Virus record (IMG/VR): IMGVR_UViG_3300027859_000017
Coordinates: 1 to 59,045 of that record
Length of the DNA stretch: 59,045 bases
Reading direction: 5' to 3' (one strand)
Source: a virus
Lineage: Duplodnaviria; Caudoviricetes
Below the pieces are notes generated by a model that worked only from the letters and a program-made list of their open reading frames with translations, had not been told where the DNA came from and made no database searches. The translations under genes and the position numbers were made by a program. Positions 17,666-58,108 of this stretch are shown piece by piece; the first letter of the stretch is position 1; the number at the start of each line of letters is the position of its first letter.

Positions 17666-20097
17666 AAGATGTAAAAATAAAAATTTCATCTGTAGGGTTT
17701 CCAAGTCAGTTTGTATCGGACGCAGAAAAAGCTACGATGGAATTTGGCTTACAGATTGGTCAAGCCATACAATATGAGTGGTTTAAAAAAGATGGAAATC
17801 AGTGCAGATATTATAATCAATGGAGAGATTTTCATAAACTTCGTTTATACGCAAGAGGAGAGCAGTCAATAAAAAAATACAAAAATGAATTAGCAATTGA
17901 CGGTGATTTGTCTTATCTAAATTTAGACTGGACACCTGTTCCTGTGATACCGAAGTTTGTTGATATAGTAGTTAATGGAATGTCTGACAGGCTTTTCAAA
18001 GTAAAAGCTTATGCGCAAGATGCAATGTCTCAATCAAAAAGAAGCAAGTATCAAGATTTAGTAAAAGGAGAAATGCTTGCAAAACCTACACTTGAAATTA
18101 TACAAAAAGAATCAGGTGTAAATCCTTTTGTTTTACCGCAAGATGATTTACCCCAAACTGATGAAGAACTTTCATTATACATGCAGTTAAACTACAAACC
18201 TGCTATTGAGATTGCTGAGGAAGAAGCAATTAATACAATATTAGAGGAAAATCATTATACAGATTTAAGAAAAAGGCTTGATTATGATTTAACAGTATTG
18301 GGTATATCGGTAGCTAAGCATGAGTTCTTACCAGGAGCTGGAGTTGAAATATCTTATGTAGACCCAGCTAATGTAGTGTATAGTTATACTGAAGACCCTC
18401 ATTTTAAAGATTGTTTTTATTGGGGTGAAATCAAAACTTTACCTATTACTGAACTGGTAAAAATAGACCCAACATTAACTAGAGAACAACTTGAAGAAAT
18501 TAGCAAATACAGTCAAAGTTGGTATGATTATTATAATACTGCGCAGTTTTATGAAAATGATATATTTTACAGAGACACTTGTACTTTAATGTATTTTAAT
18601 TATAAGACCACTAAAAAGATGGTTTATAAGAAAAAATTATTAGAAAGTGGAGGTAGTAAAGTTATAGAAAAAGACGACCAGTTTAATCCACCTGAAGAAA
18701 TGATGGAAGAAGGGAGATTTGAAAAAATTTCAAAAACTATTGATGTTTGGTATAATGGTGTTATGGTTATGGGTACAAACATTATTTTAAAATGGGAGTT
18801 AGCTCAAAATATGGTTAGACCAAAATCAGCAAGTCAACATGCCCTACCTAATTATGTTGCTGTAGCTCCGAGAATGTATAAAGGAGTTATTGAGTCTTTA
18901 GTTAGAAGAATGATACCTTTTACAGATTTGATTCAAATGACGCATTTAAAACTACAACAAGTTATTGCTAGAGTGGTACCAGATGGGGTATATATTGATG
19001 CAGATGGATTAAATGAAGTAGATTTAGGAACAGGTAACGCTTACAACCCTGAAGACGCATTAAGATTATACTTTCAAACAGGTTCTGTTATTGGTAGGTC
19101 GTACACGCAGGAAGGTGAGTTTAATAACGCAAGAGTTCCTATACAGCAATTAACTTCTAATTCAGGAGCGTCAAAAACTCAAATGTTAATTACAAATTAC
19201 AATCATTATCTCAATATGATTAGAACAGTAACAGGTTTAAATGAAGCAAGAGATGCTTCTACACCTGATGCTAATGCTTTAGTTGGGTTGCAAAAACTAG
19301 CAGCATTAAATTCAAACACGGCTACTAGACATATTTTAGACGGCAGTCTTTATATATATAGAAGTATATCTGAAGCACTTACTTATAGGGTTGCTGATAT
19401 ATTAGAATATGCAGATTTTAAAGATGATTTTGTAAATAAAATTGGAAAATTTAATGTAAGTATTCTTAATGATATATCCGATTTATATGTATATGACTTT
19501 GGTATTTTTATTGAAGTTGCTCCAGATGAAGAGGAAAAAGCTAAACTAGAGCAGAATATTCAAATGGCTCTTTCAAAACAAGATATTAACTTAGAAGATG
19601 CTATAGATATTAGAGAAATTAAAAATATAAAATTAGCCAACCAATTATTAAAATTAAAAAGAAAACAAAAAGAAGAACAACTACAGCAACGAGAAATGAA
19701 GAAACAAGCTATGGTTGCTCAACAACAAATCCAATCTCAGCAAATGGCCTCACAAGCTGCTATGCAAAAACAACAGGCTGAAATTCAAGGAAAAATTCAA
19801 TTAAAACAAGCAGAAATAGCGTTTGAAATTGAAAAACAAAAAAATGAAGCCGTATTAAAAAGCCAGTTGATGCAGCAAGAATTTGATTACAATCAACAGC
19901 TTAGAGATATTTCAGAGCAAGGTTTGTCAAAAAGAGAAAAGTCAAGAGAAAAAGCTAAGTCTGATAGAATCAGTCAACAAAATTCTGAACAATCTCAGCT
20001 GATATCACAGAGAAAAAACAATTTACCTCCTCAAAGATTTGAATCCAATGAAGACTCACTTGATGGATTCGATTTAGCAGAATTTGAACCAAAATAG
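17662..20097 (+). CDS. Portal protein
   Basis: 811 aa after terL; IPKFVDIVVNG motif, Gln-rich C-terminal coiled coil (barrel). Confidence 0.85.
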   Translation: MKDVKIKISSVGFPSQFVSDAEKATMEFGLQIGQAIQYEWFKKDGNQCRYYNQWRDFHKLRLYARGEQSIKKYKNELAIDGDLSYLNLDWTPVPVIPKFVDIVVNGMSDRLFKVKAYAQDAMSQSKRSKYQDLVKGEMLAKPTLEIIQKESGVNPFVLPQDDLPQTDEELSLYMQLNYKPAIEIAEEEAINTILEENHYTDLRKRLDYDLTVLGISVAKHEFLPGAGVEISYVDPANVVYSYTEDPHFKDCFYWGEIKTLPITELVKIDPTLTREQLEEISKYSQSWYDYYNTAQFYENDIFYRDTCTLMYFNYKTTKKMVYKKKLLESGGSKVIEKDDQFNPPEEMMEEGRFEKISKTIDVWYNGVMVMGTNIILKWELAQNMVRPKSASQHALPNYVAVAPRMYKGVIESLVRRMIPFTDLIQMTHLKLQQVIARVVPDGVYIDADGLNEVDLGTGNAYNPEDALRLYFQTGSVIGRSYTQEGEFNNARVPIQQLTSNSGASKTQMLITNYNHYLNMIRTVTGLNEARDASTPDANALVGLQKLAALNSNTATRHILDGSLYIYRSISEALTYRVADILEYADFKDDFVNKIGKFNVSILNDISDLYVYDFGIFIEVAPDEEEKAKLEQNIQMALSKQDINLEDAIDIREIKNIKLANQLLKLKRKQKEEQLQQREMKKQAMVAQQQIQSQQMASQAAMQKQQAEIQGKIQLKQAEIAFEIEKQKNEAVLKSQLMQQEFDYNQQLRDISEQGLSKREKSREKAKSDRISQQNSEQSQLISQRKNNLPPQRFESNEDSLDGFDLAEFEPK

Positions 20098-22743: not shown

Positions 22744-22780
22744 AAAAGAAGGGGTGTCTTTAAAGACACCTCCTCTTTTT
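22744..22780 (+). terminator. Intrinsic terminator whose stem is the 16-bp palindrome
   Basis: AAAAGAAGGGGTGTCTTTAAAGACACCTCCTCTTTTT after the capsid stop; palindrome copy at 22754-22769. Confidence 0.75.
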
Positions 22781-43686: not shown

Positions 43687-44919
43687 TTACAAAGATAGCA
43701 AATCCCTTTTGAAGTGTTTTAATGTATAATCTTTCTTCTTTACCACTGCTTTATAAATTTTTTTTTCTATACCCTTGTTTGAAAATACCCAATAAATTTT
43801 ATTATACATTCTGTTTTTGGTTGTCATTCTATCCCTGCTTTGCCAATAACTTGTTGCCGAAAAATCAATATTAAAATACACCAGAGCTTCTGCATGGCGC
43901 AAACTTATTCCTTCTCTTCCTGAAACAATTTGTAAGGCTATATTTTTATTAGTGTCTTTAAAGACACCAATGTCTGTAGTTATTGATTCTAAAAAAGTTT
44001 CTTTTAAGACATCTAGTTCTTTTTTAAACTTATAAAATATAGCAATCTTTTTATTTTTAAACTTTCTTTTTATAAACTCTGCCTTGCTATTGTCTACAAT
44101 CATAGAGTTTCCGCTTTCAAATATTATAGTTCCACTATATATCTGGTGAAGCTTCTGCATAAGCTTGACAGGTGTATCGGCTAATATAACTTCTTCTTTT
44201 CCCTGTACGACTAAATCTTTTTTTAATCTTGTGGCAAGATTATAGGTTTCAGGTTTCATTTGTACCTCTAATATTTTTTCTTGAGTTTGAACCACAAACC
44301 CCGCTTGTTTTTGAGAGTAGCTTATTGTGTAGGGTTTCATTTCGTCAAGTATTGTAAGTAGCCCATCGCTGTAGTCCCTAATTCTAAGTGAGTTTATAAT
44401 TCTTTCTTTTACATTTACATAATCATCGCAAAACCTATAAAAGTTTTTGTATTTTTTATAAGGGTTGTTGGGTATTGCATAAACTTGATGATACATTTGA
44501 CTGTAAGATTCGGGGGTAGGTGTACCCGAAAGTAAGATTACATAAGGTTTATTTTTTTCAATTAACTTTTTTACTTGTAAAGCTCGTTTACTGGGCTTTG
44601 GAAATGCTCCCATTCCGTGAGCTTCATCACAAATAATCATATCAATATTAACTAAGTCTATCTTGTGAAGCGACTCGTAATTAATTACTGTTAACTTAAA
44701 CGGTTCCCCGAGCTTTTGCATGTCCGATTCTATACTTGACATGGCTTTCTTTTTGGTAATAAATAAAGCGTTAACCACATTCAAAGAATGGCAGATGCTA
44801 AGACTGGTAAGAGTTTTACCAGTCCTAACTTCCATTGCCAAATAACAAAAACCGTAGCGTGTTACAAGTTCGGCACCCTGTGTTACAATTTGTTTTTGAT
44901 ATGGTCTAAGTTTTATCAT
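43687..44919 (-). CDS. SNF2-like/SF2 helicase
   Basis: LRPYQ, MEVRTGKT, ICDEAH, LSGTP, GREGISL, QSRDR. Confidence 0.9.
   Translation of the reverse strand: MIKLRPYQKQIVTQGAELVTRYGFCYLAMEVRTGKTLTSLSICHSLNVVNALFITKKKAMSSIESDMQKLGEPFKLTVINYESLHKIDLVNIDMIICDEAHGMGAFPKPSKRALQVKKLIEKNKPYVILLSGTPTPESYSQMYHQVYAIPNNPYKKYKNFYRFCDDYVNVKERIINSLRIRDYSDGLLTILDEMKPYTISYSQKQAGFVVQTQEKILEVQMKPETYNLATRLKKDLVVQGKEEVILADTPVKLMQKLHQIYSGTIIFESGNSMIVDNSKAEFIKRKFKNKKIAIFYKFKKELDVLKETFLESITTDIGVFKDTNKNIALQIVSGREGISLRHAEALVYFNIDFSATSYWQSRDRMTTKNRMYNKIYWVFSNKGIEKKIYKAVVKKKDYTLKHFKRDLLSL
43952..43967. repeat. 16-bp palindrome GTGTCTTTAAAGACAC inside helicase CDS
   Basis: Exact copy; reads VFKDT in the protein. Confidence 0.9.
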
Positions 44920-51388: not shown

Positions 51389-51735
51389 ACCCCTAACATC
51401 TTATATGTTGTGTAATACAAGTCGCTCTCTAACATTTTAAAATCACTTGTTTCCATTTGGTCTTTTCCATAATCTAAATACCAATTTCCACTTTCCAACA
51501 TTTCAATTTTTAGTCCACCAATGTAGCACATCACTGCCACACATTTTTTGTGCAGTGGCACATCTTTAAACCAGTTCTCATATTCCTCTCGGGTTAACAA
51601 TCTCCCAGTGTCTTTAAAGACACTTATTGATAGGGGCTTTTGATTGTCTGCGTATCTCAGCAGTCTGCCGATATAATGTCTATCGGGTTTGGGGCGAAGC
51701 TTTTCTGCTTCTACTTCTGTTGTAAATATATTCAT
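51385..51735 (-). CDS. Hypothetical protein
   Basis: 116-aa ORF containing a palindrome copy. Confidence 0.65.
   Translation of the reverse strand: MNIFTTEVEAEKLRPKPDRHYIGRLLRYADNQKPLSISVFKDTGRLLTREEYENWFKDVPLHKKCVAVMCYIGGLKIEMLESGNWYLDYGKDQMETSDFKMLESDLYYTTYKMLGV
51608..51623. repeat. 16-bp palindrome inside CDS
   Basis: Exact copy, extends to 18 bp (A...T); reads VFKDT. Confidence 0.9.
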
Positions 51736-54124: not shown

Positions 54125-54146
54125 TTGTTTTAAGTATTTAAGTGGG

Positions 54147-54162
54147 GTGTCTTTGAAGACAC
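54147..54162. repeat. Palindrome variant GTGTCTTTGAAGACAC in 5' leader
   Basis: One central mismatch; between promoter 54189-54220 and ATG 54124. Confidence 0.85.
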
Positions 54163-54188
54163 TACCCTAAGGTTAAACATAATTTAAA

Positions 54189-54220
54189 CAAAGGTACGAC
54201 ATTCTATCGACATATACAAA
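54189..54220 (-). promoter_or_regulatory. Consensus Bacteroidota sigma promoter
   Basis: TTTG-N20-TACCTTTG on - strand. Confidence 0.85.
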
Positions 54221-54234
54221 TACCTCTGTTGCTT

Positions 54235-54292
54235 GATAATGAGGGCGGAAACTAATCCACCCTTTCGAGTACACAACTCTCATCAGATTATC
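54235..54292 (-). ncRNA. Type I hammerhead ribozyme (downstream of phosphatase)
   Basis: GAUAAU CUGAUGA GAGU-UGUGU-ACUC GAAA GGGUGGA-UUAGUU-UCCGCCC UC/AUUAUC; full core, three stems, CUC cleavage site at 54241/54240. Confidence 0.9.
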
Positions 54293-54314
54293 TATTGCGA
54301 AATATTCTTTCGCA

Positions 54315-54836
54315 TTAAAAGTTTCCTTCTGCAACTTGAAAACATTTTAATCCCCTGCTTCGCCACATCTTAACGACTTTATCCCTGTCATCAAAGACGC
54401 ACACAATTCTGTGCATAGCAAAACTTGGGTCGTCCCATTCATCAGTAATTTCTTGCTCTTGCTCTATGAGTGCGTCCAACCATTCCTCTTTTAAAACATC
54501 ATCGGGTTTCATCAACTGGCTTGTGGGTCTCATCTTTATGTCGTCATAATATATGTTGTACTTCTCCAACCACTGCTCAGTGGCTTCTTGCGTTCCCGCT
54601 GAACGACCGCTAAATATTATTATTCGGTAATCTTTCCACAAGTGCTTCGCAATTTCTACCACTGCATGATTTGGCCTGTCAAGTTTGATATTGTTCGGGT
54701 CATAGAATTTGTCCCAATCAATCTTGCCATCTGGCTTACTGGATACTTCCCTTCTTTTGCTTATATCGGCAAGTGTTCCATCTAAGTCAAATATTATTAC
54801 TTTATTGTGTTTTCTATTTAAGTGTTTTAGATTCAT
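54315..54836 (-). CDS. HAD-family polynucleotide 3'-phosphatase (T4 Pnkp C-terminal domain-like)
   Basis: IFDLDGTLA, FSGR, MRP...KPDDVLKEE, FDDRDKVVKMWRSRGLKCFQVAEGNF closely parallels the T4 Pnkp C-terminus; no kinase domain. Confidence 0.88.
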   Translation of the reverse strand: MNLKHLNRKHNKVIIFDLDGTLADISKRREVSSKPDGKIDWDKFYDPNNIKLDRPNHAVVEIAKHLWKDYRIIIFSGRSAGTQEATEQWLEKYNIYYDDIKMRPTSQLMKPDDVLKEEWLDALIEQEQEITDEWDDPSFAMHRIVCVFDDRDKVVKMWRSRGLKCFQVAEGNF

Positions 54837-54852
54837 AATTATTATTTTAATT

Positions 54853-54920
54853 GTTACTTACAAAGGGGGTTTTTAATCCCCTCTGTTTCGCCACCTTTCT
54901 GTGTTGCTCGTCAGAGTAAC
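54853..54920 (-). ncRNA. Type I hammerhead ribozyme (upstream of phosphatase)
   Basis: GUUACU CUGACGA GC-AACACAGAAAGGUG-GC GAAA CAGAGGGG-loop-CCCCUUUG UA/AGUAAC; GUA cleavage site at 54859/54858. Confidence 0.88.
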
Positions 54921-54923
54921 TAA

Positions 54924-55073
54924 TTAAACTAAATATTCGGCGACTTTCTTTTCGGCCTGTTCTCTTGTTAGACCAAATTTATCCATGAGGTTTTTAACTC
55001 TGATTAACCTCCTGTTTTCTCTCCTCGCTTTTGCGTGGTGTAAAATGTTATTTTCTATTCTGTGTCTATTCAT
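54924..55073 (-). CDS. Small basic protein (49 aa)
   Basis: MNRHRIENNILHHAKARRENRRLIRVKNLMDKFGLTREQAEKKVAEYLV; stop lies 3 nt before the hammerhead. Confidence 0.6.
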   Translation of the reverse strand: MNRHRIENNILHHAKARRENRRLIRVKNLMDKFGLTREQAEKKVAEYLV

Positions 55074-55083
55074 AATATTTATT

Positions 55084-55326
55084 TTATATTAATTCATTTA
55101 TGTATTCAAAAGTTCTTTGTAAAGATTTTAGGTCTTTTTCTACCCAGTAATTTACATCTTTTAAATGGGTAAATTTTACCCAATCAAGAGCGTGGAGTAA
55201 CTCAAGTTTCTTTTTTATCTTATTTCTTTCTATATCTATATAGGTTAGGTTTGCAAATAACTTAATTATCTCTTTATTCTTTTTTTGATAATTGGTTTTG
55301 GCTTCTTGTATATTAGTATTTTTCAT
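55084..55326 (-). CDS. Hypothetical protein
   Basis: 80-aa ORF. Confidence 0.6.
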   Translation of the reverse strand: MKNTNIQEAKTNYQKKNKEIIKLFANLTYIDIERNKIKKKLELLHALDWVKFTHLKDVNYWVEKDLKSLQRTFEYINELI

Positions 55327-55720
55327 GATATTTTTTTAAATTTTTGTAAAATATTTTATTAATTAATTCTTCTGTTATATTGGGGTAGTCTTTCAACTTC
55401 TCGATACAATCAATAGTGTCCCCAGTGTAGTAACATTCATGGTTTGAAAGTTCTCGTTTGATAATTGTTTCAATTCCATTCTCTGCGATATCTTGTTTTA
55501 TCGCATTAGTATAAATCTTGTTAAGTTCTTTTAAAACTTTTTTCGCTTGATTTCTTGGGCAATACATACCCTGTCCAAGTCCAACGATTTGGTCTTGCTT
55601 TGTTAGAAAGTGTTTTCTCATGCCTTCAGCAAATTGTTCATTGTCGAATGCAAAGAAAACTTTTCTTTGTTTGAATAGGTTTGTTTGTGCTTGTTCTGTG
55701 TAATCGTTTAAGTATTTCAT
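55313..55720 (-). CDS. Phage hypothetical protein
   Basis: VFFAFDNEQFAEG...RELSNHECYYTGD pattern. Confidence 0.7.
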   Translation of the reverse strand: MKYLNDYTEQAQTNLFKQRKVFFAFDNEQFAEGMRKHFLTKQDQIVGLGQGMYCPRNQAKKVLKELNKIYTNAIKQDIAENGIETIIKRELSNHECYYTGDTIDCIEKLKDYPNITEELINKIFYKNLKKYHEKY

Positions 55721-55732
55721 AATAATAATAGT

Positions 55733-55876
55733 TTAAAAATTAATTGTTACACCATTAAAAATGGTTTGATATAGTATAAAAAGAATGCCTGTAAAACTCA
55801 TTAACATTAGCTTATAAATAAACAATGCTAAAACTGGATTTGTGTCATTCCAAATTGATTTGATTAAGTATTTCAT
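55733..55876 (-). CDS. Small membrane peptide (47 aa)
   Basis: MKYLIKSIWNDTNPVLALFIYKLMLMSFTGILFILYQTIFNGVTINF. Confidence 0.5.
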   Translation of the reverse strand: MKYLIKSIWNDTNPVLALFIYKLMLMSFTGILFILYQTIFNGVTINF

Positions 55877-55897
55877 ATAATTGTTTTTAAAAGTTAG

Positions 55898-55942
55898 AGA
55901 GCGGGAGGGGACTCGAACCCCTCTAAATTTCCAAACCGCTCT
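55898..55942 (-). ncRNA. tRNA-like mini-element (acceptor stem + T arm only)
   Basis: AGAGCGG-UUUGGAAAUUUA-GAGGGG-UUCGAGU-CCCCUC-CCGCUCU. Confidence 0.65.
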
Positions 55943-55946
55943 GAGA

Positions 55947-55962
55947 GTGTCTTTAAAGACAC
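55947..55962. repeat. 16-bp palindrome after amidoligase stop
   Basis: Exact copy, extends to 20 bp GAGTGTCTTTAAAGACACTC. Confidence 0.9.
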
Positions 55963-55965
55963 TCC

Positions 55966-57039
55966 TTAGGGCATAAATACACTAACTTCAGACCCTCTTA
56001 CCAAATCAACCCATTCATCAACTAATACATCGTAGTTCCTTTTCAGGTCTGTGTCAAACCATACCAAATGGGCTTGATGAAAAAGGTCTCTCGCTGGTCT
56101 AAAAGCCCCCCTATTGGTTACCTCGCTTTTAATCCATTTCCAACCCTCTACATAAGGAATTACATACCTGTTGAATTTACTGGTCAAAATCATCCTTCTA
56201 AAATGCCCCGCCAGTGTTCCCAACCAGTCCACCTTTTCAGCGTTCCCCTCGTACATGCTCATCAGTACAGGTCTAATAATCTTAAGGAATTTTTTATGCG
56301 TTCCATTCGGATTATTAATTGAAAAGTCTAAAAGATGATAACAAAGTTCATATCTCCTCATCATCTGCTTGACGCTCTGTACTCTGCTCGGGAGTCGCAA
56401 CTCAATAGCGTGGTCCATGATTTTTACTGGGCAGTATTTATCATGCCTACCCCCTAAAAAATCATTTAAATTACTATTGTAGTCACTGGGTTTTATTGAT
56501 AGGTTTCTATTGCAGTAGCTATTCGTTAACCTCTTTCTGAAAATTGCGTAAAAGATACCAAAGTTTTTTCTGATTTTCTCAGCAACTTCATAACCGCTTA
56601 ACCCATGAACGCTCAAAGTAATATGCCCCCCGCAACTTCTATCGGATGGGCTAAACTCATCAGAGATAATTTTCTTTGCTTCAACAAACATATTGAAAAC
56701 TTTCGTTCTCCAAAGTGATTTCGGCAACAGAGGAAGTACATGAGTAACCGCTTCAACTCCGCAAGAGGAATCAGTTTCAAACCCTTTAAAAAGCGGGTAC
56801 TCTATAACTGCCCCCCTGTGAAATCTTATTTTTTCAATTTCGAAACCGATATTAAATTTGCTTTCGATTTCATTCGGGTCATCCGCATATCTTTCAACAA
56901 CATTCGTTGTTCTTATCCCTCGTAAATCAACCTTTTTCGCTTTGTTGATAAACTCGGGGTCGGGGCTTCCATGATACCCCCTGACTCTACCTCTGTCAGC
57001 ATCGCCAGTAATTTCAAATTTTACTCCTGTATCAATCAT
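55966..57039 (-). CDS. Putative amidoligase (COOH-NH2 ligase, Amidoligase_2-like)
   Basis: IGFEIE, TDSSCGVEAVT, SCGGHITLS, KY, IELRL. Confidence 0.75.
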   Translation of the reverse strand: MIDTGVKFEITGDADRGRVRGYHGSPDPEFINKAKKVDLRGIRTTNVVERYADDPNEIESKFNIGFEIEKIRFHRGAVIEYPLFKGFETDSSCGVEAVTHVLPLLPKSLWRTKVFNMFVEAKKIISDEFSPSDRSCGGHITLSVHGLSGYEVAEKIRKNFGIFYAIFRKRLTNSYCNRNLSIKPSDYNSNLNDFLGGRHDKYCPVKIMDHAIELRLPSRVQSVKQMMRRYELCYHLLDFSINNPNGTHKKFLKIIRPVLMSMYEGNAEKVDWLGTLAGHFRRMILTSKFNRYVIPYVEGWKWIKSEVTNRGAFRPARDLFHQAHLVWFDTDLKRNYDVLVDEWVDLVRGSEVSVFMP

Positions 57040-57707: not shown

Positions 57708-57852
57708 TGTTTTTTATATTTTTATTTAGATTTTAGTTAAATAGTTGATTCTCTACCTGTTAAATAGGGTCTAATTATTGTAAAATATTAGAGTAATTTT
57801 CCTGGAGCGGGTTATTACCTTTCTTTTCCTGTTGTGAGGGAAAGGTTAAAAG

Positions 57853-57868
57853 GTGTCTTTAAAGACAC
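57853..57868. repeat. 16-bp palindrome in divergent non-coding region
   Basis: Exact copy. Confidence 0.9.
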
Positions 57869-58108
57869 TTTAAAGGGGGAAAAATGGAATATAAAAGAGA
57901 ATAGGGCCGACACAATAAGCAAAACAATTGTATTTGACAGAGGTAGGATAAAAAGCTAAAAAATTTGGCCAACCCGAGACAAAACAGACCCCCACCCCCA
58001 AAAAAAAAAGTCATTTTATTTTTTTTAGATTTGTGCGTGTGGCGATATATAACCTCCAGCCTCTATATATCTAAAATAAATTTGTATCTTTACATAAAAG
58101 AATCAGTT

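Follow-up and report, generated by a model that had tools for sequence, protein, structure and literature searches.

The window analysed here is an entire IMG/VR record of a marine phage (IMGVR_UViG_3300027859_000017; Duplodnaviria, Caudoviricetes) of 59,045 bp, with a completeness estimate of 97%. Between two genes on its minus strand it carries a 45-nt tRNA-like minihelix, which is composed of an acceptor-like stem, a 12-nt linker and a T arm. The minihelix has the structure of the acceptor/T-arm half of a tRNA, its pairs covary among relatives, it stands in a slot that is equivalent to one filled with hammerhead ribozymes in related phages, and it is a member of an array-forming family. It is probably a tRNA-like punctuation signal in the messenger RNA (mRNA) that would be cut by host RNase P, and possibly also by host RNase Z.

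The components of the minihelix, given in 5' to 3' order of the transcript after the whole element, are:

55898..55942, minus strand: tRNA-like minihelix (acceptor stem, 12-nt linker and T arm), 45 nt; from sequence, minimum-free-energy (MFE) fold, compensatory changes and the covariance models R1 and R2 (see below).
55942-55936 paired with 55904-55898, minus strand: acceptor-like stem, 7 bp, AGAGCGG/CCGCUCU; from sequence.
55924..55935, minus strand: 12-nt linker starting UUUGGAA, in place of the D and anticodon arms; from sequence, unpaired in the fold.
55905..55923, minus strand: T arm with a 6-bp stem (55923-55918 with 55910-55905) and the 7-nt loop UUCGAGU (55917-55911); from the T-arm motif GGTTCRANTCC.

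The strand of the minihelix (minus, 55942 to 55898) is the coding strand of all neighbouring genes, and its 3' flank reads CUAAC, so that CCA is not encoded. The MFE fold is exactly the two-stem layout, at -20.1 kcal/mol. Both sequence and fold, on the minus strand, thus agree with the first-pass annotation of this DNA, which had described a 7-bp stem, a 12-nt linker containing UGG, a T arm and the lack of an encoded CCA. Shuffled sequences fold at a mean of -12.95 kcal/mol (sd 2.65; z = -2.70), and 4 of 200 shuffles are equally stable; this z value is modest alone, and the weight is therefore carried by the comparative data.

As in canonical tRNAs, a 7-bp acceptor stem sits on a T arm whose loop fits UUCRANY; with 6 bp in the T stem, the acceptor/T-arm stack comprises 13 bp and not the canonical 12. 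The motif that marks t-elements, GGTTCRANYCC, lies within the acceptor-like helix, and the minihelix is intergenic on the transcribed strand, likewise in four distinct relatives and in the arrays described below. There is no canonical cloverleaf: ARAGORN reported 0 tRNAs in the whole window, the negative outcome that had been expected of a tRNA finder. RF00005 gave no match in the local region at E<=10, the only tRNA family reported there being tRNA-Sec (14.9 bits, E 5.2). With Rfam 15 there were no matches in the whole window at gathering score and none at E<=1; the best weak match (601 nt searched at E<=10) was to mascRNA-menRNA (RF01684), whose 17.9 bits against a gathering score of 42.5 make the minihelix a non-member. 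A hammerhead core (CUGAnGA and GAAA, three stems) is absent from the minihelix.

A minihelix was found at the same place beside homologues of the upstream 357-aa gene that share 63-89% protein identity. Four distinct versions occur in this lineage, and in every version 13 of 13 pairs are standard. Two pairs change on both sides, i.e. acceptor pair 7 (G-C, U-A or U.G) and pair 6 (G-C or A-U), and one T-stem pair goes from G-C to G.U (L049); the G.U pairs fit an RNA on this strand, not DNA. The linker always has 12 nt, of which the first seven (UUUGGAA) are invariant and the last five variable. At the level of single positions, 55936 and 55904, which form pair 7, change together in contigs of three other metagenome runs; among the changes listed from four DNA runs, those within the element are 55904 G>T with 55936 C>A, and 55912 C>G. 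The contigs of these four runs represent DNA only and are silent on RNA, and none of the 21 sequencing runs that contain the region is an RNA run. A lack of covariation in homologues, which the first-pass annotation had named as evidence that would speak against its own reading, was looked for, and compensatory changes were present in the relatives.

The same layout recurs far from this lineage. When IMG/VR was scanned for exact matches to the cores of linker and T arm, 77 stretches were returned; in many of these a complementary 7-mer stands right before the linker, and the 7/12/6/7/6/7 layout is identical although the stem sequences are unrelated. In a gapless alignment of 20 family sequences, which had been picked by a window-derived pattern and by a script that requires pairing, so that the pairing figures are biased upward, 93.8% of the cells are paired, compared with 59.1% after shuffling (0 of 500 shuffles reach the observed value) and with 45-53% when the partner is slid by 1-3 columns; among these 20 sequences 11 of the 13 pairs change on both sides, the other two being fixed by the search pattern.

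Less biased evidence for the family is given by the extra array copies found with covariance models and by the negative controls. Model R1 yielded 32 full-length matches in 23 of 75 loci, including copies missed by the pattern, and scored the minihelix of the window at 65.9 bits. No R1 match was obtained at E<=0.1 in five complete hammerhead-bearing relatives (~300 kb), and where loci have true tRNAs with the same 23-nt 3' half, R1 gave local T-arm matches only (<=24.1 bits). A covariance model from related phages had been suggested as a check in the first-pass annotation; model R2, which was built without any sequence of the window's lineage, recovered the minihelix in the window (filters off) with 54.0 bits (E 5.6e-10), the match covering the entire model, and no other R2 match in the window lay below E 0.5. 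Rfam at gathering score reported nothing in five loci holding family members.

The minihelix family is widespread in phages, and in two contigs it forms arrays in which a copy comes after nearly all of the small genes. The arrays are exemplified by L196 (G005, a 69-kb record of ~60% G+C), where ten full-length copies are found on the same strand in a stretch of 4 kb; every copy comes after a small open reading frame (ORF; 75-133 aa), its start falling anywhere from 3 nt inside the stop codon to 10 nt past it, and ARAGORN reported no tRNA in this locus. Similarly, L166 contains six copies after six small ORFs, of which four start at or within their own TAA and two start 1 and 7 nt past the stop. 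Only UGG of the linker is retained in the model-found array copies. Single copies were found in each of five other records checked. Genes flanking the other family members are diverse (lipoprotein, HNH endonuclease, a weak tail-protein match, unknowns), and no consistent protein partner, defence or anti-defence gene was found beside them. In several single-copy members the TAA of the upstream ORF supplies the first two A's of the stem, and the members with such an overlap are:

L166 4846-7563; L196 3686 and 5623; L103, L107, L108, L121, L123, L146, L159: stop-codon UAA forms the first acceptor pairs.

The 3' context of the family members is tRNA-like as well. In the GC-rich array, CCA follows directly after the 13th pair in 8 of 10 copies, this pair being G:C in each of the eight, and a ninth copy has CCA shifted by one base. 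In low-GC members the tail after the helix is CAA (7/20) or CUA (8/20); the true tRNA-Arg genes of two relatives likewise encode no CCA and are continued by CAA and CUA. Judged by the real tRNAs that share it, the 23-nt 3' half of the minihelix equals tRNA positions 50-72, which makes the 13th pair N-1:N73. Histidine acceptor helices also have a paired -1:73 and then CCA.

The immediate surroundings of the minihelix in the window, in transcript order, are:

55966..57039, minus strand: upstream gene, 357 aa (stop 55966-55968); ORF whose homologues define the slot.
55945..55964, no strand assigned: perfect 20-nt palindromic hairpin, 5' of the minihelix on the transcript; from a palindrome search.
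55877..55897, minus strand: 21-nt A/U-rich spacer from the minihelix to the next ATG; it begins with CUAAC, which is kept in all four lineage versions.
55733..55876, minus strand: downstream gene, 47 aa, no known function (ATG at 55876); ORF conserved in L005, L006 and L045.

For the slot survey, 76 loci with a homologue of the 357-aa gene were used (17 viral contigs, MW202828.1 and 58 metagenome contigs), and the slot was taken as the stretch within ~20-110 nt downstream of the stop codon. Thirteen of the 76 loci end before the slot; the 63 that show it were reduced to 53 distinct ones by removal of duplicates. The content of these slots is:

Type III hammerhead: 41 of 53 distinct relatives.
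Type I hammerhead: 2 of 53 distinct relatives.
Minihelix: 4 of 53 distinct relatives.
Nothing recognisable: 5 of 53 distinct relatives.
Cut off mid-hammerhead (L088): 1 of 53 distinct relatives.

A hammerhead of either type is hence present in 43 of the 53 distinct slots. These hammerheads were found by motif scripts and covariation, and the Rfam model confirmed the type III form only: Hammerhead_3 matched L007 with 40.5 bits (E 6e-8 in a small search), below the gathering score of 48.5. At gathering score, Rfam reported nothing except one tRNA in the loci of 16 relatives. RNAalifold recovers stems III, I and II unaided from 26 distinct type III sequences (26 of the 41 type III slots, each locus represented by one sequence); in the alignment of these sequences 10 of 15 pairs are compensatory, and the CUGAnGA and GAAAC cores are invariant. 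The slot hammerheads of the relatives are genuine.

The cut of a type III hammerhead falls at the 5' edge of the ribozyme itself, which gives the same geometry as is expected of RNase P on the minihelix. In the relatives the cut point would fall a few nucleotides downstream of the same kind of hairpin as precedes the minihelix, and the ribozyme stays on the downstream RNA. The flanking protein gave an unrooted maximum-likelihood tree in which a single clade unites the minihelix rows with two rows of a cut-off slot and has a value of 99 in the Shimodaira-Hasegawa-like approximate likelihood-ratio test (SH-aLRT). The tree was obtained by a quick IQ-TREE search and comprises 52 of the 53 distinct slots, L047, L048 and the window; it omits L088 (cut off mid-hammerhead), the other 11 truncated loci and the duplicate loci.

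Of the cultured relatives, MT497017.1 and MW202828.1 contain no significant match to the minihelix (best, 18.4 bits at a record end). MT497017.1 (Flavobacterium phage vB_FspP_elemoA_7-9A) has a Hammerhead_3 match at 19083-19139 on the minus strand (36.3 bits, E 8.8e-8, below gathering), which offers a culturable system for probing the role of the slot.

These observations support the suggestion of the first-pass annotation that the element punctuates the transcript alongside the hammerheads: a hammerhead slot in 43 of 53 relatives, covariation and gene-by-gene arrays all point to such a role, for which cleavage is predicted. In the proposed mechanism the two genes would be co-transcribed, since no sigma-70-type promoter or intrinsic terminator is predicted between them on the minus strand, and the minihelix would fold into the acceptor/T-arm half of a tRNA. 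The UGG of the linker may then dock on the T loop like G18-G19 of a tRNA and mimic the elbow, and we consider it probably a mimic of these D-loop residues.

According to the available text of PMC4919913, RNase P measures the stack of T-stem-loop and acceptor stem, the T loop being needed and the D loop dispensable, and CCA is the main anti-determinant of RNase Z. As RNase P reads this stack, the host enzyme would cut the minihelix at the 5' edge of the helix, 1-2 nt downstream of the palindromic hairpin, the gap between palindrome and minihelix being two or three bases. The upstream mRNA would be left ending in the palindromic hairpin, and the downstream mRNA would start with a base-paired, protected 5' end, i.e. 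the helix. Because no CCA is encoded, host RNase Z may cut in addition after the last paired U, to give a ~45-nt RNA and an mRNA with a 21-nt A/U-rich leader. The phage encodes no RNase Z gene; the RNase Z family is present in Bacteroides thetaiotaomicron (one of the control genomes), a weak proxy for the host. Host enzymes would do at the minihelix what hammerhead self-cleavage does in the related phages, and within this reading, judged from the sequence comparisons, minihelix and hammerheads are likely to be functionally interchangeable. As the same slot holds ribozymes, the cut itself would matter there, not the released RNA.

Several points weigh against the punctuation reading. We infer the cleavage, the enzyme, the exact site and the fate of the pieces, and the pairing figures of the 20 family sequences carry the upward bias given above. 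The 13-bp stack, compared with the canonical 12, makes the cut site ambiguous by one nucleotide. The copy in the window is without CCA, of which bacterial RNase P makes use, and its 5' leader is nearly all paired in the adjacent hairpin, which could slow RNase P. In the members that overlap a stop codon, this codon would be lost by a cut at the 5' edge, as is the case at certain mRNA/tRNA junctions of mitochondria; such a loss does not sit easily with a simple RNase P model. The slot is empty in 5 of 53 relatives, so that scission there is not essential, and the unrooted tree gives no direction for the switch between hammerhead and minihelix.

The stop-codon overlap bears also on an alternative, namely that the helix is retained by the upstream mRNA as a tRNA-like cap that protects the 3' end, without a separation by RNase P; this end would be made by RNase Z, or by an endonuclease and exonucleases, and would be kept by the CCA-adding enzyme. 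Stop codons that abut or overlap the helix, as in the arrays, are easier to accommodate if the helix remains attached, and the CCA or C-N-A after the helix and the stability of the helix are in accordance with a cap. However, the window already has a separate hairpin between stop and helix, by which the 3' end would be protected after a cut on the 5' side, and the usual occupant of the slot, the type III hammerhead, cuts on the 5' side. The acceptor/T-arm helix, moreover, is a classical RNase P substrate in the available text of PMC4919913, and on this evidence a 3' cap is unlikely.

The release of a small RNA leads to two further alternatives. In one, a widespread class of 45-nt half-tRNAs of phages would have two jobs, first as cutting signals in cis through which RNase P/Z divide the mRNAs gene by gene, like the tRNA punctuation of mitochondria, and which are interchangeable with hammerheads, and then as CCA-tailed mimics of an acceptor arm that compete for host factors reading the upper half of tRNAs, e.g. 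defences aimed at the tail (Cas12a3-type nucleases), tail-modifying toxins or even a synthetase; we regard this dual role as a speculative and rather improbable one. In the other, the released CCA-tailed RNA of ~48 nt would itself be the product of interest, as a decoy for host factors that read the acceptor stem, the T arm and the CCA tail, e.g. defence enzymes that cleave or modify the tail. Arrays of 6-10 copies would provide a high dosage, and the conservation of the T loop and UGG goes further than pairing requires; yet most genomes have a single copy, the hammerheads in the same slot give no tRNA-like RNA, the common anticodon nucleases are not addressed in the absence of an anticodon arm, and no defence or anti-defence gene is consistently linked. 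A decoy for tRNA-targeting defences, the second alternative of the first-pass annotation, is unlikely.

The minihelix might also be the decaying remnant of a tRNA gene, or a selfish repeat, with no function for the phage. The T arm and the 3' strand do resemble the 3' half of a tRNA, with exact 23-nt matches in real tRNAs of unrelated organisms, and the copies of an array share acceptor sequences, as duplication would give. The compensatory changes across 63-89% protein identity, the constant length and layout across unrelated phages, and the positions, strictly tied to stop and start codons and on the coding strand throughout, make such a remnant very unlikely. Still less can be said for a hairpin that would terminate or attenuate transcription by the RNA polymerase of host or phage: the minihelix is, as such an element would be, a stable GC-rich helix in an intergenic position, but the 3' flank CUAACUUUUAAAAAC has no U-run, the minus-strand terminator scan is empty there, a separate hairpin is already present, and termination needs neither a canonical T loop nor a conserved UGG.

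The exact pattern of the 3' half has 13 matches in 185,579 species genomes (one per species), and 10 of the 13 lie in tRNAs called by ARAGORN. The matching taxa are Chlamydiae, Eubacteriales, Firmicutes, a deltaproteobacterium, Thermoplasmata-type archaea, Komeilibacteria and one unclassified bacterium. The first-pass annotation had named a perfect match to a host tRNA 3' end, pointing to an attP remnant, as evidence against its own reading. Such a copied remnant of attP or of an integration site, for which the likeness to a tRNA 3' half speaks, is largely refuted and hardly credible, as none of the 13 matching records is titled Bacteroidota, while the phage relatives infect Flavobacteriaceae, no PF00589 (tyrosine integrase) match was found in the phage, and an att remnant explains neither the complementary, covarying 5' strand nor arrays of 6-10 copies. 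Three of the 13 cellular matches are outside of ARAGORN tRNAs (L030 4151-4170, minus strand; L028; L031) and may be tRNA fragments or att sites.

The closest known kind of element is the plant-mitochondrial t-element, and looser parallels are the tRNA punctuation of mitochondria and mascRNA. Forner et al. (2007, PMC1920247), in the available text, describe t-elements as directing cuts by RNase P/Z at the ends of mRNAs, a role that is proposed and partly shown. Like the minihelix they are tRNA-like, have the T-arm motif GGTTCRANYCC and an acceptor-like stem, and lie in the flanks of mRNAs, with their ends as mRNA termini; unlike the minihelix, a fixed 45-nt two-arm helix of phages, they are organellar and form larger, non-canonical cloverleaves (PMC1920247). 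The same text, as far as it is available, describes no interchange with ribozymes and no arrays with every gene (PMC1920247). The minihelix family has such arrays, and the minihelix takes a slot that holds ribozymes in relatives. The RNAs of the mascRNA/MEN-beta family (RF01684) resemble it in that a tRNA-like fold at the end of a longer transcript is cut by RNase P and RNase Z; they differ as eukaryotic nuclear long noncoding RNAs (lncRNAs) with extra arms. In animal mitochondria ORFs abut tRNAs, excision of the tRNAs separates the cistrons, and stop codons can join the junction. There, real decoding tRNAs serve as punctuation, whereas the minihelix, without an anticodon arm, cannot decode.

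Intergenic hammerheads of phages have been described before, with activity in vitro and in vivo (Perreault et al. 2011, PMC3088659, in the available text). They are similar to the minihelix with respect to a proposed scission of polycistronic phage and prophage transcripts between genes (PMC3088659). Hammerheads are self-cleaving and leave a 2',3'-cyclic phosphate and a 5'-OH, whereas the minihelix would need host enzymes and give a 3'-OH and a 5'-phosphate. Theta (HDV-like) ribozymes reportedly adjoin phage tRNA genes, and are likewise small ribozymes linked to tRNA-type processing in phages; the theta ribozyme flanks a real tRNA, whereas the minihelix is a tRNA mimic that replaces a ribozyme between protein genes. 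The laboratory constructs that serve as minimal RNase P model substrates have a 12-bp stack and end in a 3' RCCA. The minihelix, in contrast, has 13 bp, a 12-nt internal linker and no CCA. The two-arm architecture of acceptor stem and T stem-loop is the same in both (PMC4919913, available text). No literature was found on the punctuation of phage mRNA by tRNA-like minihelices or on their interchange with hammerheads; the 10,006 candidate viral RNAs of PMC10690425, judged by its available text, may include the motif.

Small self-cleaving ribozymes are common in the genomes of phages, and their purpose is debated. One clade fills the hammerhead slot with a putative mimic of a host-endonuclease substrate, for which scission of the message is the simplest common denominator. 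Punctuation by tRNA-like elements, known from mitochondria and a few eukaryotic lncRNAs, would be extended to phages, in a minimal 45-nt form that is reported neither by tRNA finders nor by Rfam 15 and whose arrays comprise one element per gene. The minihelix also represents a new feature for annotators in early regions of phage genomes and a compact natural part for the separation of cistrons in bacteria, with any acceptor-stem sequence tolerated.

The models for the minihelix gave a weak second match in the window at 55813-55862 on the minus strand (16.3 and 14.7 bits, E 0.12 and 0.58); it sits within the 47-aa ORF, holds UUUGGAA and is probably due to chance. A second tRNA-like form was observed in eight viral loci (L114, L119, L140, L143, L154, L155, L174 and L175; e.g. 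L114 655-715). It consists of an acceptor-like stem, a 6-nt linker, a hairpin like an anticodon arm (8-nt loop with UUGGAA) and a T arm; a D arm is absent, and ARAGORN gives no call. About eight intergenic regions of L196 (G005:57500-65000) share one arrangement, with a small hairpin immediately behind the CCA, next a conserved motif near GTTGTAAACCAAT, and the ATG 7-9 nt on. This motif may serve in translation or as a phage promoter; in the latter case every gene would be transcribed separately, which would make the minihelix an element of the 3' end.

For the 357-aa ORF no Pfam or PHROGs matches were obtained, and the only lead to an amidoligase is PF12224, which occurs in 12% of the members of one near Atlas cluster. 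The first-pass annotation had placed the element between the stop of an amidoligase gene and the next gene; the position, after the stop of the 357-aa ORF, is correct, and the label is a lead only. An outer helix, i.e. an MFE pairing of the end of the 357-aa ORF with the CUAAC flank, was considered and rejected, as one of two changes in L005 breaks a pair. No tRNA-like element was found upstream of the DUF7659 neighbours in L024-L026, and a 'tRNA-Lys' called by ARAGORN in L025 lies inside an ORF and was rejected as probably false.

The palindrome next to the minihelix is one of six copies in the window at <=3 mismatches, compared with 0.01 expected:

22752-22771, 43950-43969, 51606-51625, 54145-54164, 55945-55964 and 57851-57870: palindrome copies, 16-20 nt, core GTGTCTTTAAAGACAC.

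Several copies appear between ORFs, and one lies within the helicase ORF. A GTGTC...GACAC hairpin precedes the hammerhead or the minihelix in many relatives, and is located before the ribozyme in most. The palindrome could be a stabiliser of mRNA 3' ends, a non-sigma-70 terminator or the binding site of a dimeric protein. In MW202828.1 (L027) the 357-aa homologue is fused to the upstream gene (574 aa), and a GATase/gamma-glutamyl cyclotransferase gene follows directly. In the window the two genes are separated by ~1.8 kb (54130-55965), which comprises the minihelix, small ORFs, DUF7659, a phosphatase and two hammerheads. This stretch is bounded by the palindrome at both ends, and the relatives all have a variable set of small genes there.

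The hammerheads to which the first-pass annotation had referred exist, as two type I hammerheads downstream of the minihelix on the same minus-strand transcript:

54853..54920, minus strand: type I hammerhead between a 49-aa ORF and a PNKP-type phosphatase gene; full core, three stems; stems I and III covary in L049.
54315-54836, minus strand: gene with a PNKP-type HAD 3'-phosphatase domain (PF25109, E 1.7e-28); a hammerhead on each side.
54235..54292, minus strand: type I hammerhead after the phosphatase gene; full core, three stems; conserved in L005, L006 and L046.

Both are kept in relatives, with covariation for at least 54853-54920; Rfam 15 did not report these two hammerheads even at E<=10 (901 nt searched). 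The ends left by hammerhead cuts, 2',3'-cyclic phosphate and 5'-OH, are substrates of PNKP-type end-healing enzymes. The leader left by the first of the two is 22 nt long, similar to the 21-nt spacer of the minihelix.

The G+C content of the window is 27-36%. Its plus strand carries structural genes up to ~41 kb, and its minus strand, from ~58 kb down to 41.5 kb, carries replication genes and small genes, the minihelix being inside this region. No nucleotide match of a cultured phage to 4 kb of the window was obtained by blastn, and the closest GenBank record is MW202828.1. With the large terminase of the window, tblastn led to 87 phage records, the hosts of which are the Flavobacteriaceae Flavobacterium (68), Cellulophaga (15), Tenacibaculum (2) and Maribacter (1); the one remaining record is an unclassified Caudoviricetes.

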